The notes beneath the pieces were generated by a model that was not told the DNA's origin, made no database searches, and saw only the letters and a program-made list of their open reading frames with translations. From the NCBI RefSeq assembly GCF_006345805.1, contig NW_021833603.1, positions 11,469 to 75,468 on the forward strand: a DNA stretch of 64,000 nt. Direction: 5' to 3'. Numbering within the stretch: position 1 is the first letter of the stretch; each line of letters starts with the position of its first letter. This document shows positions 16,478-58,835 of the stretch, piece by piece. The DNA comes from Octopus sinensis (lineage: Eukaryota). The position numbers were made by a program, and so were the translations under genes.

Positions 16478-17346
16478 TGTTGACAATGCATAGAATGCAC
16501 CACCCTAAGGCAGATACAGAACGACTTTATCTGCCAAGAAAAGGGGGGGCCGTGGACTTTTACAACTGGCAATAACAATGAAGATTGCTACAATTGGCCT
16601 AGACACCTACCTGTAAAACTCTGAGGACTGGATGTTAAAACTTGTCTCAAAACATGAAAACAGAAAGCATCATACTCAGTAACAAAACAGGCAAAGGAAT
16701 ATCTAAGTGAATTCCGAATACAACAAATTTCGGATTAGAGATAGACATACAAGAAACAGGCACAGAAAAAGCTAAGCGCATGAAAACCCGTGCTAAATCT
16801 GCGGCCTTAGATATTCTGAATGATAAATGGCAAGAAAAACCTCTCTATGGCAAATACCCAAAGAGAACAAATAATGCAGATGTTGACAAAGCCCTGACCC
16901 ATCAATGGCTAATGGCCTCTGGCTTAAAATCTGAAAGAGAGGGGTTTATCATAGCAGCTCAAGATCAATGCCTACTAACAAGAAACTACCACGCCAACAT
17001 ATTAAAGATCAGAAGCAGTCCAACGTGTCGTGTATGCAAGCAACAAAATGAAACCATTGACCATGTGGTCTCCAAGTGCAGTCTTCTAGCGCCTACAGAG
17101 TATCTCAACAGGCACGATAGAGCTGCACAATATATTCACTGGGTAATCTGTAAAAACCTGGATTTGCCCCATGAAAAAAACTGGTGGGAACACAAACCAC
17201 TCCCATTGCTTGAAAATGACTACATCTCACTCCTCTGGAACTTCACAACAACATAACAACATGAACTTCCAACCCTGTTGTCTCTTGAGGTCTCTGGGTG
17301 AGACTTGGAGCCAACTTGTACAAATATAAAGCAAAAGTCAAACATA

Positions 17347-17348
<2 letters not shown>
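16477..17348 (+). mobile_element. R4/Dong-type RLE LINE (family 1), 5'-truncated, endonuclease region deleted
   Basis: MHHPKAD motif and CCHC knuckle CRVC...H....C; jumps from LWNFT straight to the 3'UTR; (AAT)n on both sides. Confidence 0.88.
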
Positions 17349-17377
<29 letters not shown>

Positions 17378-17378
<1 letters not shown>

Positions 17379-21101: not shown

Positions 21102-21123
21102 TTTCTAGCTTCGAACTTTAAAG

Positions 21124-24095: not shown

Positions 24096-25646
24096 TTCTA
24101 TGTTTGAATTTTGCTTTACATTTACACAAGACCTCAAGAGACAACAAGTTGGAAGTTCATGTTGGTGTTATGCCTAGGATGCCATATATTTGGATTTTGT
24201 ACTTAGTGTTGTACTAGTGAATGCCTAAAAAACCATACGAAAATTATGAGTTTTTTTTAAAATTGACATTACAAAGAAAGTATTTTGCCTAGGCTATGAG
24301 CAGTTCCCATGAGCACTATCTTTTGAATTTCTGCCATTCTGGGGTTTCCTGGTATCTGAGTTAGGTAGCAATCAGCCCCTTTTGCTATCATTCCCAGGGC
24401 GCCTATGACAACAGGTATTGTTTTAGTCTTCAGGTTCCACATTTTGCTGATTTCTATTTCAAGATCTTTATATTTGCTCAGTTTCTGGTAGGTCTTGACA
24501 GATACGTTTATATCGATTGGGACAGTCATATCAATGAAGATGCATGTTTTTTGTCTGAAGTCTTTTACTATTATGTCTGGCCTATTCGCGTCTATCTTTC
24601 TGTCAGTTTGAATGGTGAAGTTCCAGAGGAGTGAGATGTGGTCATTTTCAAGCACTGGCGGTGGTTTGTGTTCCCACCAGTTTTTTTCAGGGGGCATGTC
24701 CAGGCTTTTGCAAATTACCCAGTGAATATATTGTGCAGCTATATCATGCCTGTTGAGATAATCTGTAGGCGAAAGAAGACTGCACTTGGAGACAACTTGA
24801 TCTGTGGTTTCATTTTGTTGCTGGCATACACGACATGTTGGGCTACTGCAGTTCTTTAAAATGTTGGCCTGGTAGTTCCTTGTAGGTAGGCATTGATCTT
24901 GAGCTGCTATAATAAACCCTTCTGTTTCAGATTTTAAGCCATAAGCCATTAGCCATTGATGGGTCAGGGCTTTGTCAACATCTGTATTATTCATTCTCTT
25001 TGGATATTTGCCATTGAGAGGTTTTTCTTGCCATTTATCATTCAGAATATCTAAGGCAGCTGTTTTAGCACGGGTTTTCATGCGCTTAGCTTTTTCTGTG
25101 CTTGTTTCTTGTGTGTCTAATTCCGGAATTTGTTGCACTTGGAATTCACTTAGGTATTCCTTTGCCTGTTTTGTTAGTGAGTATGATGCTTTCTTGTTTT
25201 CATGTTTTGAGACAAGTTTTAACATCCAGTACTTTAACATCCAGAGTTTTTCAGGTAGGTGTCTAGACCAATTGTAGCAACCTTCATTGTCATTGCTAGT
25301 TGTAAAAGACCACGGCCTCCCTCTTTTCTTGGTAGATAAAGTCGATCTATATCTGCCTTAGGGTGGTGCATTCTATGCATTGTCAACAGGTTTCGTATTT
25401 TTCTGTCAAGATTACATATTTCAGTAATTGACCAGTTTACGATATTGAAACTGTAAGTCACGACTGGCTAAAGCATTGATCGCTTCGATCCTGTTTCTCG
25501 CATTCAGGTCTGTCTTGAGTATTGCACTTACTCTGCGATAACATTCTCTCCTGATCCTTTCCTTCATCATTGAATGCCTTATTCCATCCCCTTCAATTAC
25601 CCCTAGGTACTTGTAGCTCTCCACTGGGTCTAACTCTTTTATGACA
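24096..25646 (-). mobile_element. R4/Dong LINE family 1, 5'-truncated
   Basis: ORF 24269-25240 with CCHC and RPDIIVKD...IDMTVP endonuclease; bordered by (ATT)n. Confidence 0.92.
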
Positions 25647-28137: not shown

Positions 28138-29793
28138 AAAAAAGTTTGTTTTAAACCTTGGGATTACATAGAGAGTATTTTGCGTAGGATATGAGCAGCT
28201 CCCATGAGCACTATCTTTTGAATTTCTGCCATTTTGGGGTTTCCTGGTATCTGAGTTAGGTAGCAATCATTCCCTTTCGCTATCATTCCCAGGGCACCTA
28301 TGACAACAGGTATTGTTTTAGTCTTCAGCTTCCACATTTTGCTGATTTCTATTTCAAGATCTTTATATTTGCTCAGTTTTTGGTAGGTCTTGACAGATAC
28401 GTTTATATCGATTGGGACAGTCATATCAATGAGGAGGCATGTTCTTTGTCTGAAGTCTTTCAATATAATGTCTGGCCTATTTGCATCTATCTTCCTGTCA
28501 GTTTGAATGGTGAAGTTCCAGAGGAGTGAGATGTGGTCATTTTCAAGCACAGGAGATGGATTGTGTTCCCACCAGTTGTTTACATGGGGTAAATCCAGGT
28601 TTTTGCAAATTACCCAGAGAATATATTGTGCAGCTATATCATGCCTACTGAGGTACTCTGTAGGCGCTAGAAGACTGCATTTGGAGACAACATGGTCAAT
28701 GGTTTCATTTTGTTGTCGGCATACACGACATGTTGTGCTACTGCAGTTCTTTAATATGTTGGCCTGATAGTTTCTTGTTGGTAGGCATTGATCTTGAGCT
28801 GCTATGATAAACCCCTCTGTTTCAGATTTTAAGCCAGAGGCTATCAGCCATTGATGGGTCAGGGCTTTGTCGATATCTGCATTATTCGCTCTCTTTGGGT
28901 ATTTGCCATTGAGAGGTTTTTCTTGCCATTTATTATTCAGAATATCTAAGGCCGCAGTTTTGGCACGGGTTTTCATGCGCCTAGCTTTTTCTGTGCTTGT
29001 TTCTTGTATATCTATCTCTAATTCCGAAATTGGTTGTATTCGGAATTCACTTAGATATTCCTTTGCCTGTTTTGTGACTGAGTATGATGCTTTCTTGTTT
29101 TCATGTTTTGAGACAAGTTTTAACATCCAGTCCTCAGAGTTTTTCAGGTAGGTGTCTAGGCCAATTGTAGCAATCTTCATTGTTATTGCCAGTTGCAAAA
29201 GACCACGGCCTCCCTCTTTTCTTGGCAGATAGAGTCGTTCTGTATCTGCCTTAGGGTGGTGCATTCTATGCATTGTCAACAGTTTCCTTATTTTTCTGTC
29301 GTGCTGACATATTTCAGTAATTGACCAGTTAACAATATTGAAACTGTAAGTCACGACTGGTATGGCTAATGCATTGATCGCTTCGATCTTGTTTCTTGCA
29401 TTCAGCTCTGTCTTGAGTATTGCTCTCACTCTTCGATAGCATTCTCTCCTGATCCTTTCCTTCATCTCTGAATGCCTTATTCCGTTCCCTTCAATTACCC
29501 CTAGGTACTTGTAGCTCTCCGCTGGATCTAGTTCTTTTATGACATTCTGTTGGTCAAGGTTAACGTTAGATGTTTCTGTCATTTTTCCTTTGATAAAGGT
29601 AGCCTTTGCACATTTATCGAGGCCGAATTGCATTCTGATGTCGTCACTGAATTGTTTGACTATCGCTAGTAAGCCCTTGAGTTGTTCGTCATTTTTTGCA
29701 AAAAGCTTTAAATCATCCATGTAAACGAGATGATTTATATTTTTATCAAACATTTTATACCCGTACTCGCGTCATTGAGCAGCTTTGAGAGAG

Positions 29794-36941: not shown

Positions 36942-36966
36942 ATGGCTGACAGTGGAAACTACGAAA
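36942..36966 (+). CDS. TIR-DBB gene exon 1 coding part (MADSGNYE+A)
   Basis: gcgATGG context. Donor A|gtaagt, phase 1, matches the start of exon 2. Confidence 0.7.
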
Positions 36967-38089: not shown

Positions 38090-41000
38090 TTGATCAATCA
38101 CGCATACACTCGAATGTCTAGACAATCATATATACATTTTAATACCCATAGGACTACACATGCACCCTAATGTTCACACAACTACGGTATTTCCTCTGTC
38201 TTTACGTTCTGAGTTGAAATCCTGCCGAGGTCGACTTTGCCTTTTATCCTTCGCGGTCGATAAAATAAGTACCAGTTGCATACTGGGGTCGATCTAATCG
38301 ACTGGCCCCTCCCCCCAAAATTTAGGGCCTTGTGCCTAGAGTAGAAAAGAATATTCATAATCCAGGGAAACGAACCCAGATTTACCCATCAGAAGAATTA
38401 CAACGGGATTTCTCACCCTATTTGATCATTGAAGTTTTTTATTATTTGATGTTGTTGTGGTTCTTTTTGACTTTTGCTCTGATAATTTTGAGTGACATAA
38501 GCGTCACATGCCGACCTCTTCCTTGTTTTCAACTTCGAAATTTGATGTGTTATGTCTATTCTGTTACTTGTTTCAATCACTGGACTGCTGCTATGCTTGA
38601 ACACCCTCTGGAATGGTTTGTCCGAACAAATCTACCCCAGTTCTTTATCTACACCGGTACTTGTTCAATTGGTGTTCTTCGTCGAACTGCAGGCGACGAT
38701 AACCAAACAACACCGGTTGTCCAGCGATGTGACGACAAACATCCACACACATACACACACACACACAGACACACACACACACACATACACATATACCTGT
38801 ATACAAACACACACACGTATATACATATAAATGTATACAAACACACACACATATACATATACATGTATACAAACACAGACAGACACATATACATATATAC
38901 AAACACACGCACATATACATATATACATGTATACAAACATACACACACATACATACACATACATGCGTATCAGGGGTGTATACACAGGTGTGGTAGGTGC
39001 GCTAGGTGTCCGCTGCACAGCCACCGAAAATGGCAAATTCATTACAAATATTAACCATACTCATTAATTTAATTATTTTAATGGAAAACTTCCGTTATAG
39101 CCCTGCTTGAAATTTGGTGGCATTGGGTGTATAACAACCACTATGCGCCACTGATCTGTAACTTCATGTATGCTTCCACAGATTCCTTCTACGAAATCCA
39201 AATCTAATTCTACTCACAACACTTTAATTGGTTTGGACTTACAGTCGCAGATACTAACCCGAGATGCCATACAATGGGGCTGAACCAGAAACAATATGCT
39301 TTCGAAACGAATTTATAACCCACACAACCATGCCTGCACCTTATATAAAATTACGTTCTATTATAATAAGATTTTATAGTTAGCTCGAAGCATTGTACAT
39401 GGAATATAATGTTGAAAGATGTAAAAGGCCAAACAATACAAATAGATTTTAAGATGAGGTAACGTAAACTAAAAGTGTATCCACTATTTTGGGACATACA
39501 AGAATCTTCTTCAGGGTTAAAAAGGAACTGTCCTTGGTTAGATGTTTGTTATCAGAGATAAACTAATTCTGATTATATTTGAATATTCAAGCGTTTAAAA
39601 TTCAAATATAATCATAGAATTATTTTATCTCCGACAAGAAACATCTAATCAAGGGCAGTTATTTTTTAACCCTGAAGAAGAGACTTGTATGTCCCAAAAT
39701 ATTGGATACACATAAGACCAAAGATTACCAGCTAACTTATCTTTAGGAGGCAAGTTTTGTCTAGTGAATGTTTAAAAAAAAGATGGGTGAATGTAGCAAG
39801 GATGGCACGTATGAATGACGAAGCCACCTTGACTATGATTCTATGAACCGTAAAAATTAATACAGAGAGTTGCTTATTTGCAAAAAAAAAAAAAAAAGAA
39901 ATATAACATGTGACTTCATTGACCGAGGTTACCGTGGTCTTTTCCGTAGGCTTTTCTTTCCACGGGTAAACCTCACCTGTCCTCCCCTTTACACTTCATA
40001 TTGACATTTCTGTGATTACGATCCCTATTGATCAACTTTTTTTTTTCCTCTCCCCTTTTCTTTTTTTTCCTCTCCCCTTTTCTTTTTTTTTTCCTCTCCC
40101 CCCCTTTTTTAAAATCCTCCCCTTTTTTTGTCCTCTTTATTTCCTTTCACGATCCCTTTTGATCGAAAACCAACCCCCCTTTTTTTTTACCCCCAAAAGA
40201 AAAGCTCTACCTTGTAATTTGTTCTGTCTGTGTGCAGCCCTGTGTGGCTAATAAAGAAACATATTTTCATTGTTTGGCGTTTTACATTTTTCAACATTAT
40301 GTTCTATTAATTTTTGCTTTTTTTTTTGTTATCGTTCACTATTTAAGTTTTTATTGTTTTTTTTACAGAAATTTTATTTATTCACTCTGCTGATGGCGAA
40401 GATTGGAGCAAGTATTTGCAAGAAATGTTACTTACGGAGTATAAAATTTCATCTGACAACACTCAGTATAAAGACATTTGCGATACTCATTTCAACAATT
40501 ATTTAATCAAAGTACTCATTTTCACGCCATTAATGGAAGAGGAGGACAAAGTTAGTGCCACTCTGAAAAATGACACTTTAAGCTTATATGTCTTACTTCA
40601 TTGCTCCGTTGATATAGAGCAGTCTGTATGCCAATATAAAAAAATGAACATAGTGTACACTAAAGAGATAGACCAAGTAGAGACGACTGTTCGAAATGTT
40701 CTTGAGAATATTATCGAGCTACACGAATCCTACTTCGATCATTACGAAGAAATTGATGAAAAGAAACTTCCATTCCGTTTTTTCCCGAATACCTTTTATC
40801 CTGTAAGTATAGAATAATAGTGAAGACTTTTGACCCAGCGGTTAGGGTATTGCTTTCCACATCGGTTTAGCGTGATTTCGATTCTCACTCACATTTTTTT
40901 GTTGTTTTTACAGAAATTTTATTTATCTACTCTGCTGTTGCCTCCCAGTTATAAGATTGTTTGCTCCTTCTCAAGCCATGCCTGGCTCATAAGGTTTCCT

Positions 41001-44000
41001 TGGCGTATAGGTTCCCCACCTGGACACCTTCTGCCGGAGCCGCGTGGAACTTAGGTGTTTCGCTCATAAACACACTCATCGCACAGTCTGAGATTCGAAC
41101 CCGCGATCCCTCGACCGCGAGTCCGCTGCTCTAACCACTAGGCCATGTGCCTCCACAATTATAAGATTACATCTGATAAAAACTGAATATAGAAAATTCG
41201 TGAAATTCGTTTCGACGATTACTAAATTAAAGTACCCAGGTTCATGCCATTAATGGTACGCTGTATTTTTGAGCAAAACAACTTCAATTATTTCGACATT
41301 TGCCATGCGACATCACGTGCGCCAGTAAAAAGCAACATCAATGTGATGGAGGTGGGGGTCGGGGTCAGGGTGGGGGTAGGGGTGGCGATGAGCTAATGTG
41401 CTGCATAACAAAAGAAACACGATTGTCGTGTAGTTGTGGAGAGGAAACACAGACAAATACACGCACACACACACACACACATATGCACACGCACAGAGAC
41501 ATATATATATATACATACACACATATATGTATGTGTATATGTATATATATATATACACACACACATAGATGTAAGGGCGCAAGTGTAGGTGCGCAGATGC
41601 AGGCGTGGCTGTGTGGTAAGCTTCCTTTCTAACCTCACGGTTTCGGGTTCAGTCCCACTGCGTGGGCAAGTGTCTGTTATAATAGCCCCGAGCCGAGGCT
41701 ATAAGACGCCCGTCGTATATATGTGTGTGTGTGGGTGTATACATTTGTATGTCTGTGTTTGTCCCCCCCCCCCCGCCAACATCCCTTGTCAACCGATGTT
41801 GGTGTGTTTACGTCCCCGTAAGCTAGCGGTTCGGCAAAAGAGACTCACAAAGAATAAGTCCTGGGTTCGATTTGTCCGACAAAAGGCGGTGCTCCAGCAT
41901 GGCTGCAGTCAAATGACTGAAACAAATACAACAATGTACACACACACGCACACACATACGCACACACACACGCACACACACACAACGGGTTTCTTTCAGT
42001 TTTCGTCTACGAAATCCACTCACAAGACATTGGTCGACTCGGGCTCGGGGCTATAATACAAGACACTTGTGCAGTGTGCCGCGAAGTGGAACCGAACCTG
42101 AAACCAGGTGGTTGCAAGGCGATTTTCTTAACCACACAGCCATGCATGTACCTTATATGGCCATACCTTAACTTCATTAGCATTAATGCATGTAATATAT
42201 AAAGAACATTTCTGAATCAATTATAATGAGTTATAGTAAATTATAATGAATTTCAAACAAATACGCCAACAATAAGAAATTTATAATTGTTTTATTACAA
42301 ACTAGCAGAATTACCCGGCGATGCTCGGGGCTGAATTGCTTGAAAGTACTGTTAATGATTGCACTGAATTATGATGATTATTCAGACAAATATTGATATA
42401 AGTTTACGGCGAATGAATGTATTTGTAAGTGTATAGAAAGCCGTGTAAAGGGGTTCCTACCCCCTCGTAGAATGGTGTAAGAATTGAATGTGAGGTTGCC
42501 TTGAAAAGAGCCATGTTGTTGTTCTCATAATTGTAAGAATTTGATAGTCATGGAAGGCGGTGTCAAACGTTCGCAGGTGAATAGGGTCTCTTCGTTTTCC
42601 ACGAACGGCAGCGGATGTGCTGTTGCAAAACTTCATGCTGTGTTAAAAGAGAATGGATGCCCTATGTAGGCAAGAGGGGAATGAAGCATGGGTGAGTAAA
42701 TATGGGTAATTTATAAAATATAGAACGATAGCATCTACTCACCATATGTCAGACCGGCAAGACTGTAGTGGTGCTGATTAGATGAATCACAACACAGTGG
42801 TGGAGATGTTTTCATTGATGGGCGTTATGATTAAATTTGTTGTTGTATAAAATGATCTGTTGCTTAGTTTCCAAAGTGTATGTTGCGATCGTGTTGTCGC
42901 TTATGTAAACTTTAACAGTGAGAGTGTAAATGTAGGGGGTAGATGTGTCATGTACGTTGGATATAGAAGATGAGGCTGGTGGTTTGATGATGAATGGATA
43001 GAAATAGAGGTGAGCGAAGGACAGGTGTTGGTTAAGTGTGAATTAATGTCATGAAACGCCTAGAAATGTAAATGCCATCATAAAAGAGAGTCGTATGTAA
43101 GTGAAATACTAACGTGTTCGAAAATGATGAAACGTAGTAATCCTATAAAACCTCCTTGTACACAATGTTTGTTGTTTTTCGTTGTGGAACGAATGCGAAA
43201 GCATCACTGTTGCTGCCGACGCGCGAGCAGGCAACATAAAGCTGACCATGAGAGAAACATGGCTCTCCAAAATGTATTCCCGCCACAGACAGTGTTTGAC
43301 CCTGCGCTTTGTTAATTGACATTGTGAAACATGGCCTTACTGGGAACTGGGACCTCCGAAATATGAAAGATAGGTTTGCTCCTGATGGGAAAAGATGCAT
43401 CCTAGGTATGAGCACAACGTTGCCTCGACCGCACCCTGTGATAATGGTGGCCTCAATCAGATTGGGAGATAAGGACCTAACGATCAAACGTGTGCCATTG
43501 CATTGTTTTGGGGGAAACAAATTTCTAATGAGCATTATAGGGGCACCAACTTTAAGTCTGAGAATGCGTGGTGGTAGTCCGGTGGGCTCAAAGGAATTGA
43601 GTACCTCTATTGGATAGTTGATGACGTCCTCTGGGTCAGGAGTTGTACCGATAGACTTATATACATAGACATCCCCAGGAATGAGTTTTAGCATTTCATC
43701 ATTAATATGGTGAACAGTTTTATTCCTCGGTGCCAGAATAGCCCTTTGGCCAATCCAATCCATATTCTGATATTAGCTTGTAGATCTGGGAACACTGCAT
43801 CTCTGAGATCAGAAGGCGTTTTAACAATGGTACAAATGGAATCGATGGCAATATTACCATTTTCATCCCCTGGTATTTTGCCTTCGCCAAGTGCAAGGAG
43901 GGTGTGAGAAAATGCTGCTGATGTGATATCAAGTCGCATATGAGCACGCATATTGGTGTGAAGTTTGAGTCTTCACCAGTGGCCACAATGTAGATGACTT

Positions 44001-47000
44001 AAGACACGCACTTACTGCATCAGCTCTCGTCCCTTTGGGAATAACGGGAAGTGTTTGTCGGAAGTCCCCTGAAAGAAGAAGTGTTATGCCTCCCATGGGA
44101 GCTGAAGAGTGTTTGATGTCTCTGAGAGATCTATCTAGTGCCTCAAGAGCACCTCTGTGGGCCACCGTGCATTCATCCCAAACGATAAGCTTGCATCGTC
44201 TGAAGACTTCTGCCTGATCGGAGCTGTTACTGATGTTGCAAGTTGGTGTCTCAGTTTTCGCTAAGTCAAGCGGGAGCTTGAAAGTGGAGTGAGCTGTCCT
44301 GCCGCCTGGCAACAAAGTAGCCACAATTCCAGATGATGCCACAGCTAGGTCAATGCCTTGTGTTCGCCTAATCTCAGCCAATATTAATTTGTTGACAAAA
44401 GTTTTCCCAGTGCCCCCAGGAGCGTGCAGGGAAAAAATCCCCCCAGCTTGGGTCCGGACTGAATTAACAACGGAGTTGTAAGCGAACTTCTGTTCTAGAA
44501 GGAGCTTTGGCTCATTGTCGGCTATATACTCGGCAAGCTCGTCAACATTAAAACATGTCTCACGCAGCAAATGTGAAGACAGAGTGTTTGTGCTTTCCGG
44601 TTTGTTGAAGGTAGGCCATAGACCGGCAAGGCACTACCGCCCATATCAAGTACAGTATCTTCGAACGTAGTTTGTTACCACACAGCCACACCTTCTCCTA
44701 TGTATGTGTGTGTGTTTGTGTGTGTGTGTGTGCGTATGTGTGTATGGGTAGATATATTATGCATGTATATATGTGTATATATATGTGTGTACATATTACA
44801 TGTACATCTATATATATATACATCTACACATAAAATACAAAATACAAAGTTATATCTTGATATCGCTAGTAATAACAATACTCAAAATATATAACAGAAT
44901 GGAATTGTAGGCCCGTCTCTGGCAATTTCGATCAAGTGGATCTTGTCCTCCCTCTTGTATAGAAGTGTACGGCTGCAGCGAAATTCATTTTTGGACTTTC
45001 TTCTATCGAAGGAATTTTAACAAAAATGCTTCCGTAAAGACGGTGAAAATATTGTCAATTTCCCCAAACAGGGACACAATTCAATTTTTAAACAATAACC
45101 AAAGCCCCTTCTCCGAAAGGGGGAGGGTTACGGTTTACAATTATTTAACAAATGCAACACAACAACGTTTCCCTGACGAGGAACAAACAAACGTGATTAC
45201 AATAGTCAAACAGTAATAATAATAACAAACCTTTTTAATTTATCCCCATTTATGTGAAACCACTTATTCAAGTTCAAGTCATTGATGCAATTTTATACGA
45301 ATTGCTAATACACACACACACACACACACACATAATAAGGGTGAAAAATTGAATATTAATTTGATTAATATGAATTGAAAACCAGTGGTGTAGCATATAA
45401 GACCATAGCGGATCTTCCTCTAGCAAAAAGGATGACCAGTTTTAATGGCTCATCCCTGTTATATAATACTTTCACTTTAATAGTTTCACCCTTGCAAAGA
45501 GAAAGTAGGAGAAAGTGTGGTGGTAATAGCAGGAGTAAACCACTTGAAATGAGAGGCAAATCGTAAAATATTGAGTTTTCTCGAATTTTTGCTTAATTGG
45601 GGGTCAAATTGAAAAAACTTTACATGCCGTGACCCAATCGAATCTACTTGGAAAAATCATAGGTAAATTCCAATTGAAGAAATTCTATATTGTAGAATTG
45701 TATTAAAAAGAAACATGGGAACAGGCAGAGAAAATCTGCCTTTTATCATAAGAGATATGTGTGTATTTGGAGCGAGAGCATTGCTTGCGTACTTGATGAT
45801 GATGATGAGGAGGAGGAGAAGGAGGAGAATGATGATGATGGATTATGATAATTCACTGTTACATTAGCTGTTTCATATTTCATCTATTGACAGGGTCAAA
45901 ACACACTTTTTATTGGATTCAACGAGCAAAAAGACACCACGTATTCGATAAAAATCTCGGAATGTCCAGACAGTATCCCAGTATTCCAGTGTGCGGAAAA
46001 TATTGGGAGTTGTACCCTTCCACGTAAGTTATAACATATATGTCTATAAGTGTGTATGTGTGTATAAAATCAATACCATGTTCTCATGTGTTAGCAGTGC
46101 GATTTACACTACTTGCTAGGGTCATCTCTACAGATATTCCATAGAAATTATAACCAACACTGATTTTCGTTACGACGTTTCGTACCCGAGACGTCAGATG
46201 TAAAAAAACGAATAATGCGATCGAAGATGAAAAAAGGATGATGTAGGTATATGCCACTTTTCGGGAGCTTTTTCTCCTTCATCAGCACCCATCTAATCCC
46301 TTATTCATCCACAAACACATTGCTTAAATAACAAGTTAATACAACGATGTAACATTATTGGATATGGCATTAATATTTGCGTACTGCCTCCTAGGAATGT
46401 GTTTAATATGTAAGATTGGAAGGCGGCGAGCTGGGAGAAACGTTAGCACGCCGGCCGAAATGCTTAGCAGTATCTCGTCTGCCGTTACGTTCTGAGTTCA
46501 AATTCCGCCGAGGTCGACTTTGCCTTTCATCCTTTCGGGGTCGATAAATTAAGTACCAGTTGCATACAGGAGTCGATCTAATCGACTGGCCCCGCCTCCT
46601 GTAAAATTTCTAGCCTTGTGCATAGAAGTAGAAAAAGAAAATGTAACATTGGTTATATATACCGTTGTCATTATATTCATCATCATCGTCATTACCGCCA
46701 ACACCTCCACCATTTCCCCACTAACTTCCCCACCACCCTTACCGTTACCATTCTCCTTAGCACGCTATTAATATTAAGTTTGTTTTTTGCTGGGCTTTTT
46801 TTTTTCTGCAGAATGTAAACCCGGACACAAAACTGTACAGTTGTTTGACGATAAGCGTCCTGAAGAGCAAGTATTCGCTTCAAATATTCTGATAATCACC
46901 ACAGAATCCTTGGTCAATGACATATTCGAGTACTACAGATCTTGCAAGTCTCCAAACATAAATTATAGAGGTAAATTTTACATTAGTGTGTAAATATTTG

Positions 47001-48140
47001 AAACATTCTGTAAGTATGTATGTTTTTATAGATGTGTGTGTAAGCACATATACATATGTGCATACATACAAACATACATACATACATACATACATACATA
47101 CATACATACATACATTACATACATACATACAACATACATACATACATACATACATACATACATACATACATACGTAATACATACATACATACATGCATAC
47201 ATACATACATACATATACATACATACATGCATACATACATACATACATACATACGTAATACATACATACATAATACATACATACATACATACATACATAC
47301 ATACATACATACATACATACGTACATACAAACATACATACATACATACATACATACATACATACATACATACATACATACATACATACATAAGTACCAGT
47401 TACGCACTTAATCCCTTCGTCTGTCCTTGTTTGTCCCTTCTATGTTTAACCCCATGTGGGCAATAATGAAATAAGAAACGTTAGCACGCCGGGCGAAATG
47501 CTTTGCGGTATTTCGTCTGCCGTTACGTTGTGAGTTCAAATTCCGCCGAGGTCGACTTTGCCTTTCATCCTTTTGGGGTCGATAAATTAAGCACCAGTTA
47601 CGCACTGGGGTCGATGTAATCGATTTAATACCTATGTCTGTCCTTGTTTGTCCCCTCTATGCTTAGCTCCTTGTGGGCAATAAAGAAATATGTATTTCGT
47701 CTGTTTTTATGTTCTGAGTTCAAATTCCACCGAGGTCGATTTTGCCTTTCATCCTTTCGATGAATTAAGTACCAGTTGCGTACTGGGGTTGATCTAATCG
47801 ATTGGCCCTCTCCCCCAAAATTTCGGGTCTTGTGCCTAGAGTAGAAAAGAATATTTACACGAGGCATAATTCTTATTCGGTGAGCATTAAGTTTTTACTT
47901 ACAATACCATATTGAATAACATCAGTATTACAATAATTAACATGTCTCCATAATTAACATGTCTCCATCATCGTTGTCATCGCCATCTTTGTATTTGACG
48001 GATCGCTTTTTCTTTTTTCCGTTTCTTCATTCTCAGGTTTTACCAAATCTAAGAATATTTTCAAAGGTCTACATAACTTTTACCAAGGGCTCCTTTCGGA
48101 TATAGTGAAAGATTCATTGAATGTTTCAGAGACTGAAGTA

Positions 48141-49478: not shown

Positions 49479-52400
49479 CATGCATACATACATACATACA
49501 TACATACATACATGCATACATGCATACATACATACATACATACATACATAATACATATATGCATACATACATACATACATACATACATACATACATACAT
49601 ACATACATACATGCATACATACATACATACATACATACATACATACATACATACATACATACATACATACATAAGGCGGCGAGCTGGCAGAGACGTTAGC
49701 ACGCCGGGCGAAATGCTTAGCGGTATTTCGTCTGTCGTTACGTTCTGGGTTCAAATTCCGCCGAGGTCGACTTTGCCTTTCATCCTTTCGAGATCGATAA
49801 ATTAAGTACCAGTTGCGCACTGGGGTCGATGTAATCGACTTAATCCGTTTGTCTGTCCTTGTTTGTCCCCTCTGTGTTTAGCCCCTTGTGGGTAATAAAG
49901 AAAAAAAATTCATACATACATACATGCATGCATACATACATACGTACATGCATACGTGCGTATGTGTGTGTATGTGAATGTACGAGTGTGTGTGTGTGTG
50001 TGTGTGGTGTTTGTCGGGGGTGGATGGATATAAACTTTGTCTTTTCTCTATTTTCAGGACGACAAGGCACCTCCTTTACCAGAGAGAAGTGAGTACATTA
50101 ATGCCATATTTTTGTTAATAACGGCACAACGTCCCCTTCTTTCATTTCGCCTCCTCATCCTTTCAATACTAACATACTGTCTCCCCTCCTGGGCCCTTGA
50201 GTTCAGACGGTACAAATGAGTAATCCTACGACGGACCAGGGAATAATATATACCCAAAGAAAACCAGAAAACCGACCCTATTCTCCTTATGGAATAATGT
50301 GGACTAACCCAACACATATGTTGTTCCCGGTCCCGTTTGAGTCCTTATTTATCAGAATAAAAACATACACAAAATTATTTAAATAAACTAGCTAATTAAA
50401 AAAAATCTCTATTACAGAGGAAAGCAGTAGCAATACTGAAAAATAATTATTGTCGCCATCTAAACAGGAGTGTTCTGGAAGAACAGACGATACTGCTATT
50501 TTAACCCCAGGAGGACACCTCCTCCAGCTGGCTATTCAGTATGCTTCGTACTAGGTATATATAGCAAGCAGAGAGAGAGAACTCACTCCTATTCCAGCTA
50601 TCGAGACAACCAGACCTTTCGGCTTCGACCTTATTATGGTCAACTTTGGTTATGGATTCTCGTCTGTTAGACATAGTAGTCATCATCATCATCATTGTTC
50701 GACCGTGGTCGAGGCAATGGAATTTACCATGCTACGCCAGACTTCACGGTCCATCATGGCATTACGGAGGTCCTGTTGCTGGATGCCTGTATCCCTGGAG
50801 ATTACATCAGGGTAGGAGAGTGTGCACCCTCTGGTATTGCGAGTAGATGGCTTCCAGAGGAGAAGAGTAGAAATTACCTCTTTTTCAGCTCTACAACAAT
50901 GTCCAGCAAACTGGTCAGCCTGTAATGACATGCATAAGATCTGGTCATCAAATCTAAGTAGAGACTTCAAACTTGAAATCTTCAAAGCCACAGTCGAACC
51001 AATTCTACTATATGGCTCAGAAACCTGGACGCTATCAAAGAAGCTTGAGAGGCGATTGGATGGAACCTACACTCGCCTCCTTATGAGAGCTCAAAATCTC
51101 TCGTGGAAGCGCCATCCAACCAAAATGCAAATATATGGGAAACTACCACCTGTGTTATCTCTTGTGAAAGGTAAGAGAGTCCAGTTTTCAGGACATAGTA
51201 GTAGTTTACCCCAGCTTGCAATATATTAGAAATTAACTGATATACAGTCAGTGATTTTGTAGTAAAAAAACTAGCTCGTTAAGAAAATCTCTATAAGAGA
51301 CGAAAGCAGCACCTATACGGAAAAGTAATGATTATCGTCACATTTAACTCGGGAAAGCACCAAAACACCAAAATATCTGATATTAGGGATGTTTATGTCT
51401 TCCTCCCCTGATAAACCAAACAGACGATGCTTGCTACAAGAACCTTTAAAATGGAATTCAACGAAACTTGGTTGGAAATGTTGCTGTTACTAATTTTATA
51501 TTTAAAACATACTTAGAAATTATCTGGTGGATGTAAGATATAAGATAAACATTAAATAAGATACTATAATTTAGGAAAAAAGCGTATAATTTAAGAAAAA
51601 ATGATGTTCTAGTGAAGAGAACAATAAAATTATGAATCTTTTCATTCTGGTCTTCAATACAGTTTTGAGCATTTCTTTTTTTTATTTTTATGTCTTTTCC
51701 CTGCTCCTCGCCAAAATAGGTTTTATACATCTGATTACGGAAATTATAAAAAAACATGGGAAATAACAAAGAATTCCCAACAGCAGAGTTATTTGCTCTT
51801 ACAACGAGCGTTCCTGAAATGATTAGGTTAATAATGATGGCCTACTAAAGATGATGTTTGGTCGGGATACCTAGTTATGATAAATATTAGCCAGGAGGGT
51901 CGCATCTAAAAAATTTTAACTCTACAAAAGCCCTTGGCTCTTATATATTTCCTTATATATATTCTCTAAAGGGTTCTCATGGTTCATATGAGCTTACTAT
52001 AGACAATTTAATTTTATATGAATGCGCATGATCTGGTGGTTAGAGTGTTGTGCTAACAATCGCGATATCGTGAGCTCAATTCCTGGGCTGGCGCATTGTG
52101 ATCGTGAGCAAAACACTTCATTATATGTTGCTTTGTGATCACTTTCGCATCTGTCATGAAGCATCTGTACAGATAATGACGACTTGAGGGAAGGCATGAG
52201 GTAATGTGCAGCACGATCATTTAATCACTGTAAACAAATAATTTGTGTAGATTGATGAGCAGGAAATTGCAAAATCGTATTTCCCGGGTCCCAGAGGGTA
52301 CCCTACCATACAGAGATTCTTCTTATGTAATTAGCTAAAATTAACTTATGCAGGTATATACCGCTACCTCTTAGTAGAGTCGGTGTGGCATCGGAGAAAA

Positions 52401-55400
52401 TGTTTTCCCATATTTTTATTTTGGCTCCTTGCCTTCTCAAATTCTGCTGAGATCACCTTCACTTTTTACTTTTTCAACGTTGATGAAGTAAAGTACAAAG
52501 TACCAGTCTGAAACCTTAGCCGAATGGATTTGTACTCTATTGCAAGCATTCAAGTCAGGTTCCCAGTTTGAAGAGTCCATCTTTCCCATTTTTTTCTCCC
52601 ATCAGTCTCGAAGCTCCTGTAAAAAGCCTTGAACACTGTCTTTTCCCGTGAAGAAAGTTTTGTTATAAATGTTCCATCTCTATGCTTTATGAGTTCAAAT
52701 CCCTCCACAGCATCCAAGGGTCACTGCCTGGCTCTTGGATGTCAATAGGAGAGGAATCTGCTCTGTTACAATCATTAAGACTAGGACACCATTTTGGGGA
52801 TAGTTTCTTCCCTCTTTGCCATCAGTCTCGAAGACCTTTTAAAAGGTCATAGTTTGTGCCTTCTCAGAGGCCCTTTTCAGGTGCTTCTCGCTTCTGACTA
52901 ATCGTTAAAAAGAAACATATTATCTCTAGTTAGTTTCTTATCATCTGAATGCTTTTAGCCAGATCCTGTTTATTTAATGACCTCAAGTCAATCAATTATA
53001 AAATATATCTACCCATCCATCTCTTCCACTATACGTAGGATAGTCGTGAAGATAGAATTTTCAGGCACCTCCCCCATAAAGCCCTATCAGAAACAACCCG
53101 CGTTAGACTTTCCCGTTGGAAAGTATTATCTAACTATCTTGGTCATGGTCTACTCTTATGTTTCGTGCCGGTTCGCTCGGTTTGAAAAATCCGTCTTGCG
53201 ATTCTTTCCTGCAACCTTCTTATTTCATTATTGCCCACAAGAGGATAAATATAGAGGGAACAAACAAGGACAGACAAAGGGATTAAGTCGATTACGTTGA
53301 CCCAAGTGCGTAACTGGTACTTAATTTATCGACCCCGAAAGGATGAAAGACAAAGTCGACCTCGGCGGAATTTGGACCCAGAACGTAACAGAGGACGAAA
53401 TACCTATTTCTTTATTACCCACAAGGGGCTAAACACAGAGAGGACAAACAAGGACAGACAAACGGATTAAGTCGATTATATCAACCCCAGTGCGTAACTG
53501 GTACTTAGTTAATCGCCCCCGAAAGGATGAAAGGCAAAGTCGACCTCGGCGGAATTTGAACTCAGAACGTCACGGCAGACGAAATACGGCTATGCATTTC
53601 GCCCGGCGTGCTAACGTTTCTGCCAGCTCGCCGCCTTTCCTGCGACATTCTTATCACATATCTGTAGTACCAGAACAGTGACCTTTCAACGTGGAAAAGT
53701 AGCGGTCGGCCTGGAAGGACTCATTAATCTCCGAGCTATCCACCTTATCGAGTGTCTCTACTCCATAGACCTCACAGAGCAATTCCATTTTGGTCTCACT
53801 ACATTGATAAACATAGGTGAAGGTAGGCACGAAAACCGAATTATGGGCATAATTACCTTTTTCGTCCTCATCAATAAATTCTTCTTGTCTTTTTTAGAGC
53901 AACGAATTTACATGCGACCACCTCAAAACCCAGTAAGTATCTTTCAATCTTACACATTCATTTATGCATTATATCAATTGTTACAACAGCACTACATATT
54001 CTATTATTTATCTGTTTCTTTCACCCGTGTCCCTCCTTTATATACTACTAGCAGTATCGCCCAGCGTTGTTCGGGTTTGTTTCGACCCTTTAGAATTGGA
54101 ATTTTTGAAAAGTAAAAATTTTGAATTATGTAGCTTGTTATTCTCTTTAAGTGAACATTTTGGTTGAATAAAAATATCGTAAAAAATAGGGATTTTCATA
54201 GAAAAAAAAGCACCTTTTTAATGCAAATAACTTTTGGTGTTAACATAGTCCGATTTGAATTTTTTCTTCTATGGAAGGAAGAGCAAGCCTTCTTCTATCA
54301 TACTTTCAATTTTGGTCAACTTGCGCCGCAAGGTCTCGGAGGAGATAGTGTTAGTTGAAGGCTACCAAACCTGCCATACACAGACAACTTCAGCTTTATA
54401 TATAGAGAGATTATGTATTCTTTAAAACAGTTGTGTGACAAATGTTCCACCATGTTTCACAAAGTGTTACACATTCTCTTGTTTGTTTTCTTCTTGTTGT
54501 TGTTGTTTTAATCCCCATCGTGCGACCCAAGTCTTGCCCGTCATTTTCATCCCGTCTTTATTTTTTATTCCTCCAAAATATTATATACATTTGAATACAT
54601 TATACAATGTATCGCAGGAGTGGCTGTCTGGTAAGAAGCTTGCCTCTCTACCACATGGTTTCGGATTTAGTTCCGCTGTATGGAACCTTGGGCAAGTGAT
54701 TCTACCATGTTCTTGGGTCGACCAAATGTTTGTGAGTGGATTCGGTAGACAGAAACTAAAAGAAGCCCTTGTTATACATATATAAAAATGTGTGTGTGTG
54801 TATGTGTGTATGTGTGTGTGTCTGTGGTTGTCCGACACAGCATCACTTAAAAACTGATGTTAGAGTGTTTACGCTCTTGTAACCTAGCGGTTCTGCGAAA
54901 GAGACCGATAGAATTAGTAGTATGCTTTAAAAATATAAATCCTGGGGACGATTTGTTCGACTAACATCCATTATGATGGTGCCTCAGCATGGCCGCAGTC
55001 AGGTGACGTAATCAAAAAATAAAAAGATAAAAGACATTCCAGTACACAAGGAGAATAAAAACGCCTAATGTACACTCATTTTTCTTGATGTATACTCAGT
55101 AAATATACAGGGTGTCCTACAATTAACAATCTATTTTAATGAAATCGGAGAATTTTTCTAAAAGCTCCCTTTTATTTATATTAATCACGTATATTTAAGA
55201 GATGAGGAATTATGTACATTATTTACATTTGACGGATGTTTCATCAAATGTAAATAATGTAAATGAAATGCTTACCTGACAAAACCGACACCTGATCCAC
55301 TTAGTTTTCTTTTAATTATAATTTGTCAAATCGTTAATTAAAGAACATTTTCCTTTTCATCATAAATAAAGAACACAAAAAAATTTCAAATCATTCGCTT

Positions 55401-56979
55401 TCAGGAACCACATTCAAGAAAGCGAGCTGAAATGAGACAAAATATTGATTACCGAGGAGTAAGTACAGCATCCTCGGATATTTTGATTTGTGTTTCCTTC
55501 AGCCACCACATCCTCCACTCCTTCCTCTTCCTCAATTCCTTCTCTTCTTCCTTCTCCTTCCCCTTCCCCTTCTTCTTGTTCTTCTTGTTCTTCTTGTTCT
55601 TCTTCTTCTTCTTCTTCTTCTTCTTCTTCTTCTTCTTCTTCTTCTTTTCTTCTTCTTCTTCTTCTTCTTCTTCTTCTTGTTCTTGTTCTTCTTCTTGTTC
55701 TTCTTCTTGTTCTTCTTCTTCTTCTTCTTCTTGTTCTTCTTGTTCTTCTTGTTCTTCTTCTTCTTCTTCTTCTTCTTCTTCTTCTTCTTCTTCTTCTTCT
55801 TTTGGTCAACTTGCGCCGCAGCGTCTCGGAGGAGATAGTGTTAGTTGAAGGCTACCAAACCTGCCATACACAGACAACTTCAGCTTTATATATAGAGAGA
55901 TTTGCTTTAGTATCATAATGGGTTGCATATAGAGAACTTAATTTAGAGCGGATTGTAAATATTTGAAATCTACTTCTAGCATAGACGCTGGTCATTTCCA
56001 GTTGCCCTTAACTAAAAGTGTATTTTAAAAATTATATACGTAAATAAATTAATGTTACCTATAAGGTCATTTTTATGTGCTAGACCACTAATATAATCAT
56101 TTTAATGATTATATTCTTATCTTATAAGTGGCACTCCGTCGGTTACGGCGACGAGAGTTCCAGTTGATACGATCAACGGAACTGCCTGCTCGTGTACCCT
56201 TAACGTAATTCTCGGGAAGATTCAGCGTGACACAGAGTGTGACAAGGCTGTCCCTTTGAAATACAGGCACAACAGAAAGAGGAAGAAAGAGTGAGAGAAA
56301 GTTGTGGTGAAAGAGTACAGCAGGGTTCGCCATCACCCTCTGCCGGAGATCGTGGAACCATACGTGTTTTTTTGGCTCAATAAACACTGGGAATCGAAAC
56401 AGCGATCCTACGACCGCGAGTCCGCTGCCCTGACCACTGGGCCATTGTGCCTCCACTTCTTATCAGTTCACAATAAAGTAATACGCATAAAATTGTATCA
56501 ATTGTTTTAAAATTTGCCTAATTTCATTGAAATTATATAATTCCGATTTCATTAAAATAGATCATTCTTGGACACCCTGTGTCCCGGAATTAAGAGTATG
56601 AATCGAACAAATAAAATGCTTCTTCGATGAAGCTGACACCCGATCCGTTTGCTTTTTCAATTATAATTAAAGAAATTGTTAATTAAAAGATATTTGCTTT
56701 TACATCATAAAAAAAAAATTTTCAAATAATTTTGGTTTGTTGTTTCTGTTTCAGATTCCAGAAATAAGAGCCAGAAACTCACGAAATTTTAATTACCAAA
56801 AAGTAAGCACAACATTCTTGGATATTGTTTCGTGTTTTCTTCAGCCGCCACCTCCACTCCTATTTTCTTCTCTTCTCCCTCCTCTTCATTTTTTTCCTCC
56901 TTCTTCATTCTCCCCTTCGTTCTCTCCATCTTCCCCCTAAACTTCCTCCTGTCCTTCTTCCTCCTACTCTTCCTCCTAT

Positions 56980-57038
<59 letters not shown>

Positions 57039-58835
57039 TGTGTGTCTGTGTTTGTGTATGTATATGTGTATGCATGTATGCATATATGCGTCTTTGGGCT
57101 TGTGTTGCTTTATTTACATACCTGTAACTTAGTGGTTCGACAACGGAGACCAGCAGAATATATACTAGACAGCAAAATGAAACACAGAAAAGGAGATCGA
57201 TTTGTTCGAGTAGAGACACTTCAAGGCAGTGAACCGGAACTAGTAAATGATAAAAGACGAAAGTTAGCAGCTTGTCTGCTGTAAGCGACCTGAACGTGGC
57301 CACCCTTGTCGAATTTGAAGTACTTGATTGCCAAACCTTGTCACAACCTCGTTACGGTCGGGTCAGGCTTGACCCTTGCGCATCACCAATACCTGGTTAT
57401 GTCGGATCTTATATTTTGTTTGACTTCCGCTTCCGCATCTTATTAGAAGACAAAAGCCACTCAACCACATTGATATGATTGGCTGAAACACATTGCACAA
57501 AATTGTGTAGAGGAAGAAGAGGAAGAGAGGTAAGAGGAGGAGGAGGAATGGGGAAGAAGGAAGAAGCAGAGCAGGAGCAAGAGGAGTTGGAGAAGATAGA
57601 ATATGCGTGTGTGTGCGTGTGTGCGCGCGCGTGTTTTTGTGTATGTGTAAAGCCAGAACAATGCGAGAAGGTACAATAACCATATAACCATATAATTATA
57701 TGAATAACCAATAACCATATAATTATATGAATCATATGGTTATTGACGATTTGTTTATTTTCAGCATATTAGGCATTGGAATTTTTTTCTTTTGCCTTTG
57801 TTTATAAGTTGTTTATAAATTTAACCTCTAAAGATATTTTTAACATGCTGGCCATTAATAGAATTTTTTACGAAAAATTTTATCCAAATTAGATATATAT
57901 ATAATGATATTTATATTTAGAGAGACCGACAGACAGACAGATAGAGACAGACAGAAAGAGGGAGAGAGAGTGTGATTCAATCCTGTATCCATACTGTTGT
58001 ACACTTCATAGTATAGTGTGTGGTTGTGCAAACAAGGACATCTTCTAAGGAACCGATTCTAAGAAACCGATTCTCATGAATACTGGATGACTTACGGCTG
58101 CCACAACGGAGATGAGTCGATGAAAATATTTTGTCAATAAGCGATAGGTTTGTCGCTAAATGTTTGAAATTTTCCCCAAAAAAAGTGCCTAAGAGAGATA
58201 ACGCAAAATTATCCAATGGTTGTCCTTTATAGTTTTGAAAAACTCTAACCACAATGGAAAGAAATTTCGGGTAAAACAATAAAAATAACGAGAGAAATGA
58301 TAATACATTATTGAAGGATATCGTGTAGGCACGTGGCTCAGTGGTTAGGGTGTCAGCATCATGATTGTAAGATTGTGGTTTCGATTCCTGGACCGGGCGA
58401 CGCGTTGTGTTCTTGAGCAAAACACTTCATTTCACGTTGCTCCAGTCCACTCAGTAAAGCTGCGATGGACTAGCGTCCCGTCCAGCTAGGGAACATATAC
58501 GCCATAGAAACCGGGAAACCGGGCCCATGAGCCTGGCTAGGCTTTAAAAGAGCGCATTTATTTATTTTATTTATTGAAGGATATCGAAGATCACGTGAAA
58601 ATAAACGAAAATGGAATAGCAATAATCGTACGATATTAAAAAGCATGTCGAGCCATTCTTCTTTAATATACGTGCATAAATTTCGTATTTATTTTACATA
58701 TACAATTTATATTAACCATGTGGGATAATTAAGCATTTTCCTTATTTGCAGCTCATCAACAGACAAAAGATAAGCTCGTATCTAGATAATATAGTACCAC
58801 CAATTTTACCGGACAGAATAAATGGAAGACCATAA
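36942..58835 (+). CDS. Spliced 10-exon gene: BCAP/PIK3AP1-BANK1-Dof-like TIR-DBB adaptor, predicted 366 aa
   Basis: Exons 36942-36966, 40369-40802, 45894-46023, 46812-46970, 48037-48137, 50058-50088, 53898-53932, 55405-55458, 56755-56802, 58752-58835. All introns are GT-AG with phases 1,0,1,1,0,1,0,0,0, joining into one open frame of 1101 nt. The N-terminus KILFIHSADGEDWSKYL resembles BCAP DILIVYSPDAEEWCQYL (recalled, not aligned). Confidence 0.8.
39476..39710. repeat. Diverged palindrome (~110-bp arms) in intron 1 of the TIR-DBB gene
   Basis: tgtatcc...gggacatacaag...ttcttcagggttaaaaa mirrored by tttttaaccctgaagaa...cttgtatgtccc...ggataca. Confidence 0.85.
40369..40802 (+). CDS. TIR-DBB gene exon 2: TIR-like domain plus YEEI linker
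   Basis: Acceptor ttttttttacag, donor CCT|gtaagt. 434 nt open: ILFIHSADGEDWSKYLQEML...IKVLIFTP...HYEEIDEKKLPFRFFPNTFYP. Confidence 0.88.
40959..41158 (-). mobile_element. tRNA-headed SINE (family C) with TSD ttataagatt; relatives at 35085-35300, 56125-56455, 58325-58560
   Basis: TGGCCTAGTGG and GGTTCGAATCT boxes on the minus strand; TSD at 40949-40958 and 41159-41168. Confidence 0.8.
42302..45755 (-). mobile_element. Helitron, internally deleted (PIF1 helicase remnant, no Rep), in intron 2 of the TIR-DBB gene
   Basis: Minus strand A|TCTCTTATGATAAAAGGC 5' end; 3' hairpin CCCGAGCATCGCCGGG then CTAG|T; inserted between A and T with no TSD. Confidence 0.9.
43143..44570 (-). pseudogene. Frameshifted Helitron PIF1-like helicase
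   Basis: APGGTGKT, VASSGI, IVWDEC, GDFRQTLPV, CNGTRL, MSINKAQGQT, HGQLYVACSRV spread over 3 frames. Confidence 0.92.
45894..46023 (+). CDS. TIR-DBB gene exon 3 (DBB/TIG N-half)
   Basis: ttgacag|GGT...CCAC|gtaagt; GQNTLFIGFNEQKDTTYSIKISECPDSIPVFQCAENIGSCTLP. Confidence 0.82.
46812..46970 (+). CDS. TIR-DBB gene exon 4 (DBB/TIG C-half)
   Basis: tttttctgcag| ... AGAG|gtaaat; QCKPGHKTVQLFDDKRPEEQVFASNILIITTESLVNDIFEYYRSCKSPNINYR. Confidence 0.82.
48037..48137 (+). CDS. TIR-DBB gene exon 5
   Basis: ttcattctcag| ... GAA|gtaatt; GFTKSKNIFKGLHNFYQGLLSDIVKDSLNVSETE; in phase with exon 4. Confidence 0.75.
48565..49415 (-). mobile_element. Degenerate Dong family 2 3' fragment interrupted by a hAT MITE
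   Basis: 3'UTR matches 19320-19420 and abuts (ATT)n; KVCLLINMPCDHNISAK matches the 18491 ORF. Confidence 0.75.
48846..49163. mobile_element. hAT MITE
   Basis: CAGAGACTCTCAAAG...CTTTGAGAACCTATG; TSD-like ctttaaac/ctttagat. Confidence 0.65.
50058..50088 (+). CDS. TIR-DBB gene micro-exon 6 (DDKAPPLPER)
   Basis: ctattttcag| 31 nt |gtgagt; class II SH3-ligand-like PPLPER. Confidence 0.72.
50681..51191 (-). mobile_element. RTE-clade LINE 3' fragment with inverted 5' segment and 11-bp TSD
   Basis: (GAT)n tail; minus-strand QFAGHC...DREVWR; plus-strand PILLYGSETWTL...RVQFSGH; TSD gacatagtagt at 50670-50680 and 51192-51202. Confidence 0.88.
53898..53932 (+). CDS. TIR-DBB gene micro-exon 7 (KQRIYMRPPQNP)
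   Basis: ttgtcttttttag| 35 nt |gtaagt; phase 1 to 0, which complements exon 6. Confidence 0.7.
54048..54410 (-). mobile_element. Non-autonomous Helitron (~360 bp)
   Basis: Minus strand A|TCTCTCTATATATAAAG start; hairpin CCCGAACAACGCTGGG then CTAG|T end. Confidence 0.85.
55405..55458 (+). CDS. TIR-DBB gene micro-exon 8 (EPHSRKRAEMRQNIDYRG)
   Basis: gctttcag| 54 nt |gtaagt; symmetric phase 0. Confidence 0.68.
55801..55900 (-). mobile_element. 5'-end-only copy of the same small Helitron, fused to (CTT)n
   Basis: Near-identical to 54312-54410. Confidence 0.8.
56755..56802 (+). CDS. TIR-DBB gene micro-exon 9 (IPEIRARNSRNFNYQK)
   Basis: tttctgtttcag| 48 nt |gtaagc; symmetric phase 0; flanking introns are homologous to those of exon 8. 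Confidence 0.68.
58752..58835 (+). CDS. TIR-DBB gene terminal coding exon (LINRQKISSYLDNIVPPILPDRINGRP*)
   Basis: ttttccttatttgcag| phase 0, ends TAA; AT-rich 3'UTR follows. Confidence 0.68.
   Translation, partial: LINRQKISSYLDNIVPPILPDRINGRP

Follow-up and report, generated by a model that had tools for sequence, protein, structure and literature searches.

Introduction

The Dof family is defined by a DBB domain, typically accompanied by ankyrin repeats, and its members carry an N-terminal TIR domain in most bilaterians, according to the available part of PMC7260276; oyster, limpet and annelid Dof/PI3KAP proteins are included in the legend of Fig. 2 of that paper. According to PMC6937578, BCAP has Grb2 and Nck as SH3-dependent partners, and a dimerisation that involves its DBB domain is needed for the inhibition of TLR signalling, as described in the accessible text of PMC7128310. 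The available section of PMC3634451 describes Dof as recruiting Csw/Shp2, Grb2/Drk and Src64B.

Here, we analysed a 64,000-nt stretch of the Octopus sinensis genome (hereafter, the window) that contains LOC115230293, listed in RefSeq as an "uncharacterized protein". A preliminary description of this locus had proposed a signalling tail assembled from micro-exons, roughly one docking motif each, acting as a combinatorial splicing switchboard. Among the papers listed in our literature searches, none names LOC115230293 or describes cephalopod TIR-DBB proteins. We consider it probable that the gene product is an adaptor of the BCAP/BANK1/Dof type, short and divergent, with a TIR domain, a DBB domain and a disordered tail but no ankyrin repeats. 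Of the exons for the tail, exon 8 is alternative and exons 6, 7, 9 and 10 are likely constitutive.

Results

The exon structure of the gene was established by in silico splicing. Joining exons 2-10 of the window gave a translation that equals RefSeq isoform X1 (P0003) letter for letter, and the match over exon 2 showed 100% identity to LOC115230293 and 99% to the O. vulgaris model. RefSeq lists three isoforms, all reproduced exactly by exon sets of the window: isoform X1 contains all exons (366 aa), isoform X2 lacks exon 8, and isoform X3 lacks exon 4. Both exon 4 and exon 8 are missing from the O. vulgaris model. All nine introns are GT-AG, and all exons lie on the + strand. The coding part of exon 1 (36942..36966; start codon, eight codons plus 1 nt) supplies the N-terminus found in RefSeq isoforms X1-X3. 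Exon 2 (40369..40802) encodes the predicted BCAP-type TIR domain (model residues 7-128), a linker with YEEI (Y134) and the first DBB strand, and exon 3 (45894..46023) encodes the first part of the DBB/TIG domain (residues 154-196). The last two predicted DBB strands and the first helix (residues 197-249) come from exon 4 (46812..46970; 159 nt, phase 1-1), and a helix after the DBB domain (residues 250-283), of low model confidence, from exon 5 (48037..48137; 101 nt).

Five small exons follow. Exon 6 (50058..50088; 31 nt, phase 0 to 1) encodes the class II SH3 ligand PPLPER, and exon 7 (53898..53932; 35 nt, phase 1 to 0), covered in all four transcript runs analysed, encodes a YxxP motif (Y298). 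Exon 8 (55405..55458; 54 nt, phase 0-0) is a cassette exon with DYRG (Y321), and its paralogue, exon 9 (56755..56802; 48 nt, phase 0-0), encodes NYQK. The coding part of the terminal exon 10 (58752..58835; 84 nt to the stop) contains YLDN and a second class II motif, PILPDR. The lengths and phases of these exons agree with the preliminary description, as do the places of all seven motifs, which lie on the + strand, and spliced junctions were present in public contigs. In silico translation further confirmed that the frame is kept on removal of exon 8, exon 9, exons 8 and 9 together or exons 6 and 7 together; loss of exon 6 or exon 7 alone led to a premature stop. By a looser microexon cut-off of ≤51 nt, three of the five exons would qualify. 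Under the published limits of ≤27 or ≤30 nt, the term micro-exon itself does not hold for any of them.

A crude splice-site scan recovered exons 4-9 and missed exons 2 and 3; in this non-exhaustive scan, no candidate for a further small exon was found between exons 6 and 10. Just 3' of exon 2, a near-copy of the exon 2 acceptor and its first ~25 nt was observed (40890-40935), possibly a decoy acceptor or the remnant of a small duplication. The window also contains other reading frames and fragments. Intron 2 holds broken PIF1-like helicase reading frames on the - strand (43143-44633), which we take to be a Helitron fragment from their resemblance, and the stretches 16711-19291, 24269-25357, 28164-29771 and 50816-51229 are presumably decayed non-LTR retrotransposon fragments (reverse transcriptase/endonuclease), again from resemblance. 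An intronless ORF of 640 aa at 21109-23043 encodes a multicopper oxidase (laccase-like) with all three Cu-oxidase Pfam domains; it had six other full-length matches in the genome at 50-52% identity.

The protein was modelled with AlphaFold from 13 sequences (mean pLDDT 62.5, pTM 0.46). The pLDDT was mostly 70-90 over residues 10-230 and below 50 over residues 134-142 and 238-338. The tail is accordingly predicted to be disordered over 238-338, and two class II SH3-ligand motifs in it are conserved, in keeping with the signalling tail proposed earlier. In a VIA-align search of 48,161 chains, the DBB domain of BCAP (6sws) ranked first (Z 11.3, rmsd 3.0, 96 aligned, model 142-240) and the TIR domain of BCAP (5for) ranked second (Z 10.7, rmsd 2.7, 119 aligned, model 7-128). 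Foldseek returned 6sws at ranks 1-3 (E 8.3e-7). Unrelated receiver, flavodoxin and plexin-IPT domains lay within 1 Z of the BCAP matches in the structure search, so that neither the TIR match nor the DBB match is decisive alone; the strength of this model-based assignment is that both BCAP domains came first, in BCAP order.

Other searches gave related results. The top match of a sequence-profile search of the PDB was 5for (E 0.0022), spanning the N-terminal motif of the BCAP TIR domain. Pfam TIR_3, the BCAP-type TIR family, matched eight of the 11 relatives, all below the curated cut-off (scores of 18.8 and 17.8 bits against 26.1). A BCAP-type N-terminal TIR domain is thus indicated by the structural and profile matches to 5for together with the sub-cut-off TIR_3 matches. 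Pfam DBB (PF14545) gave no match by sequence, and the DBB domain was recognised through predicted structure only. The first three structure rows of the ESM Atlas, computed with the Atlas's own model, were BCAP/BANK1 clusters; its feature search returned nothing usable. These matches also bear on whether the protein might stand outside BCAP/Dof descent, its flavodoxin-like/TIR and IPT/TIG domains having been fused independently. Such an origin would suit the identity of 12-15% to the BCAP domains, the sub-threshold Pfam scores, the nearly tied unrelated folds, the lack of ankyrin repeats and the finding of no longer relative linking the protein to canonical Dof. However, BCAP/BANK1 came first by four methods, the two domains adjoin each other in the order found in BCAP, and the N-terminal motif of the BCAP TIR lies within the sequence match, and we regard an independent fusion as scarcely credible.

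Several features separate this protein from its closest models. Pfam scans of 11 relatives detected no ankyrin repeats, and the protein ends ~125 residues after the DBB domain, mostly in low-confidence tail. The tail contains no YxxM, the single YxxM (Y98) lying inside the TIR fold, which makes direct docking of the PI3K p85 SH2 domains unlikely; the octopus protein has no YxN Grb2-SH2 site either. By its predicted architecture, the protein is a BCAP/Dof adaptor, yet an atypical member. The short, ankyrin-less TIR + DBB architecture is new among BCAP/Dof adaptors, and the splicing is of the ordinary cassette type.

An all-against-all profile search identified 10 relatives at E ≤ 0.001, comprising O. 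vulgaris, O. bimaculoides, Argonauta, an O. vulgaris paralogue and six further records. In O. sinensis, a paralogous TIR-DBB gene was located on contig C17 (39552935-39571400), with 27% identity over 237 residues and a short tail without PxxPxR. The accessions of the two O. vulgaris proteins are consecutive and their contigs are equal in length, so the gene and its paralogue are likely neighbours in that species. C17 also carries two of the six oxidase matches mentioned above (38.8-38.9 Mb), at a distance of ~0.6-0.7 Mb from the paralogous gene.

We also searched the genome for a canonical, ankyrin-bearing Dof/BCAP. The Pfam DBB search was empty, without any control match either, and Pfam TIR_3 led to the paralogue only, weakly; a search with P0011 returned both known loci and one weak, stop-containing match. 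No relative of 806-2300 aa scored, and tblastn over 40 kb covering the end of the paralogue and its downstream region detected no ankyrin-like homology and no homology to the tail of P0003. Because the genome searches were insensitive, the absence of a canonical Dof is not to be read as loss. The full-length relatives P0008, P0010 and P0011 share the TIR-DBB part and differ in their tails, which contain acidic tyrosine sites, a basic stretch and a C-terminal proline motif, suggesting from these sequences a small family whose tails evolve fast. A C-terminal PxxPx[RK] motif was present in two of the three full-length relatives scanned outside Octopus.

Skipping of exon 4 is annotated in two species (RefSeq isoform X3 and the O. 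vulgaris model). It is predicted to break the DBB domain, with its last two strands and the first helix lost, and judged from the model it is probably the more consequential splice event of the gene. A single-sequence fold of the exon 4-skipped isoform X3 was uninformative (mean pLDDT 34.6).

Splicing of the tail was examined in four of 24 runs (runs X1 and X3 from organism A, runs X9 and X13 from organism B), over two stretches. These were assembled contigs without tissue labels; exons 5, 6 and 10 lay outside the stretches examined. The four runs, whose RNA type is predicted rather than recorded, were treated as RNA because exact GT-AG junctions were present. The joint between exons 7 and 8 (GT..AG, 1472 nt skipped) was found in three of the four runs (X1, X9 and X13). 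In run X3, one contig ran from exon 7 to exon 9 and on to exon 10 directly, without exon 8, which is direct evidence of exon 8 skipping. Cover on exon 8 was zero in this run, and the skip is read from the exon 7-exon 9 contig, not from the gap in cover. In runs X9 and X13, the end of exon 8 precedes exon 9, and loose ends of 120 and 89 nt equal exons 6+7+8 and exons 7+8, respectively. The contigs of run X1 break at the end of exon 7 and at the start of exon 9, which would fit the presence of both forms. Exon 9 was joined to exon 10 in all four runs. Low-depth contigs running from the intron into exon 7 (53610-53927; runs X3 and X13) and from the intron into exon 9 (56650-56784; run X13) were also observed, consistent with pre-mRNA or intron retention.

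The depth of exon 8 equalled that of the exon 7-exon 8 joint in the three runs with exon 8, indicating that only exon 7 enters it. Skipping of exon 9 or of exons 6 and 7 was seen neither in the four runs nor in six protein models from three species (the three RefSeq isoforms, the O. vulgaris model and two O. bimaculoides models). As contigs drop rare forms, these missing skips are absence of evidence, and rare or tissue-restricted skips could escape. Exon 8 is a true cassette exon and the sole one of the five small exons observed to be skipped.

The proposed combinatorial switchboard, in which exons 6+7, exon 8 and exon 9 are included independently under tissue regulation to give up to eight tail variants, therefore stands only in part: exon 8 is alternative (RefSeq isoform X2 and the run X3 contig), and the other skips were not seen. 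That all three units are removable in frame and that the tail is predicted to be disordered would agree with such a switchboard, and human genes offer well-known cases of the principle (PMC3437557). The absence of the other skips from models and runs, the entry into exon 8 from exon 7 only, the terminal position of exon 10, the loss of the exon 7 and exon 9 tyrosines in O. bimaculoides and the 46% chance rate of YxxP all speak against it, and we consider it very improbable. In place of a combinatorial switchboard, the tail likely has one ordinary optional exon.

Exons 8 and 9 resemble each other beyond their coding parts. The unit of exon 8 and its flanking intron (55290..55520, + strand) is homologous to 56635-56859, which likely reflects a tandem exon duplication. 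The upstream flanks were identical in 83 of 110 aligned columns (75%; score 77 against a shuffle maximum of 17) and the downstream flanks in 49 of 57 (86%; score 69 against 13), while the exons alone (31/47 identical) were just at the shuffle maximum. These alignments point to a likely tandem duplication of the two exons. In a weak genome search, each unit matched itself alone, and the 75%-identical sister unit was also missed.

Three related possibilities were considered, and the first two were rejected. Duplication among the other small exons was not supported, 14 of the 15 exon-neighbourhood pairs being within the shuffle range. Exons 8 and 9 are not mutually exclusive, since RefSeq isoforms X1 and X3 join them, as do contigs of runs X9 and X13. 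A transposon origin of the pair found no support: no repeat-type pile-up was present on the immediate flanks in the runs examined, and the weak genome search above gave no further copies. Our literature search found no paper on tandem exon duplication with alternative splicing in cephalopods.

Class II SH3, YxxP, YEEI and ITIM motifs are assigned to their partners by consensus rules. We compared the motifs with O. bimaculoides, where the conservation expected by the preliminary description held for part of them. Both SH3 ligands keep PxxPxR (PPLPER is unchanged and PILPDR reads PILPKR), and two of the four tail tyrosines survive, those of YLDN and DYRG. The other two are lost: IYMRPP of exon 7 reads IQLRPT, without the tyrosine and YxxP, and NYQK of exon 9 reads NHQK. 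Exon 10 was identical in 25 of 27 residues (93%), against 62-70% for the DBB-region exons 3-5, and exons 7-9 were the least conserved (50-56%). No tail alignment was obtained outside the genus Octopus. YEEI (Y134) falls in the linker predicted between TIR and DBB; Argonauta has YEII at the aligned position and one other relative has YDII, and the O. bimaculoides models do not include this region.

Shuffling of the sequence gave the chance rate of each motif. YxxP appeared in 46% of tail shuffles and at least two class II PxxPx[RK] motifs in 4.0%; in the whole protein, YEEI appeared in 1.4% and the looser Y[DE][DE][ILV] in 8.3%. None of the SH2 consensus patterns scanned matched DYRG, NYQK or YLDN inside its own exon. 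The earlier idea of roughly one docking motif per exon was not supported in this respect: exons 8 and 9 both end in Tyr-x-x, with the Tyr+3 residue encoded by the next exon, and the terminal exon 10 has two motifs.

Exon 8 and the first codon of exon 9 together form an ITIM-like sequence, IDYRGI (Y321), which reads VDYRGV in O. bimaculoides and IDYRVI in the contigs of organism B, so that hydrophobic-D-Y-R-x-hydrophobic is found in all three versions of the junction. The pattern was spotted post hoc and occurs in 13% of tail shuffles, and as a candidate site this junction is a lead only.

These data also bear on whether the adaptor is as described with an exon 8 skip that is neutral, exon 8 being a leaky, redundant duplicate in a fast-drifting spacer that works only through its PxxPxR pair and the helix of exon 10. 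The low conservation of exons 7-9 (50-56% in O. bimaculoides), the likely origin of exon 8 as a duplicate of exon 9 and the 13% chance rate of the ITIM-like pattern would be expected from a neutral skip. Exon 8 is nevertheless retained in O. bimaculoides, with the hydrophobic-D-Y-R-x-hydrophobic pattern in three of three versions, and the runs differ sharply, run X3 having assembled the skipped form only and runs X9 and X13 the included form only. These differences may reflect regulation, or a species or assembly effect. On balance, we find a neutral exon 8 skip unlikely.

Discussion

Our results favour a BCAP/Dof-like adaptor with a single optional exon in its tail. By analogy with BCAP and Dof biology, the protein would be cytosolic, probably act as a dimer, and be brought by its TIR-DBB part to a Toll-like or FGF-type receptor once this is activated. 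SH3 adaptors of the Grb2/Nck type would bind the fixed PxxPxR motifs of exons 6 and 10, and phosphorylation of the tail tyrosines would add SH2 partners. Inclusion of exon 8 would add one tyrosine site, the ITIM-like sequence, as a candidate site for SHP2/Corkscrew. The gene would thus carry one binary switch in the tail (exon 8), and the annotated skip of exon 4 would be another, one that disables the DBB domain.

A bolder proposal goes further: octopuses would have turned Dof/BCAP into two short paralogues that lack ankyrin repeats and are uncoupled from PI3K. The copy studied here would have two independent splice switches, a lineage-specific exon 8 duplicate switching an SHP2-type inhibitory tyrosine motif on and off, and an exon 4 skip that destroys the DBB dimerisation domain and leaves a TIR-only modulator of Toll/FGF signalling. 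We hold this full scenario to be quite doubtful.

Under the adaptor reading, a gene listed as "uncharacterized" in the octopus, together with its paralogue, can be identified as a likely BCAP/Dof-like TIR-DBB adaptor of a kind that sequence-based annotation misses. In cephalopods, both proteins are candidates for connecting Toll-like or FGF receptors with SH3/SH2 partners. The locus is also a small example of a signalling tail that may have grown by the tandem duplication of an exon, one of whose copies is optional. The splicing follows a well-known principle, with no new mechanism.

Compared with known systems, the small exons recall neural microexons (3-27 nt, SRRM3/4 programme) in being small, partly frame-preserving exons of a signalling protein, but all five exceed 30 nt and two shift the frame when skipped alone. 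No paper found on octopus microexons dealt with LOC115230293 by title or abstract. Closer to the motif-embedding alternative exons in the available part of Buljan et al. 2012 (PMC3437557), octopus exon 8 is an in-frame cassette in a predicted disordered tail with a candidate phospho-tyrosine site; unlike the tissue-regulated exons described there, only one of the five small octopus exons was seen to be alternative, in a RefSeq isoform and in a contig without a tissue label.

BCAP (PIK3AP1) and BANK1 share with the octopus protein, as predicted, a cryptic N-terminal TIR domain followed by DBB/TIG and C-terminal helices, and a disordered tail in which tyrosines accompany proline-rich motifs for SH3 binding. 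BANK1-D2 drops the TIR domain, according to the accessible text of PMC7128310, and an annotated octopus isoform likewise drops part of the folded region. The octopus protein differs in its length (366 aa against ~800), its lack of ankyrin repeats and of a tail YxxM, and its identity of 12-15%. The Dofs in the available part of PMC7260276 have DBB and ankyrin repeats, whereas the octopus protein has neither ankyrin repeats nor a YxN Grb2-SH2 site. Drosophila Dof/Stumps and the lophotrochozoan Dof/PI3KAP proteins resemble it in combining a DBB-type domain with tyrosine docking sites, both predicted in the octopus, and the partner classes given for Dof in the available section of PMC3634451 (Csw/Shp2, Grb2/Drk and Src64B) would suit the octopus motifs.
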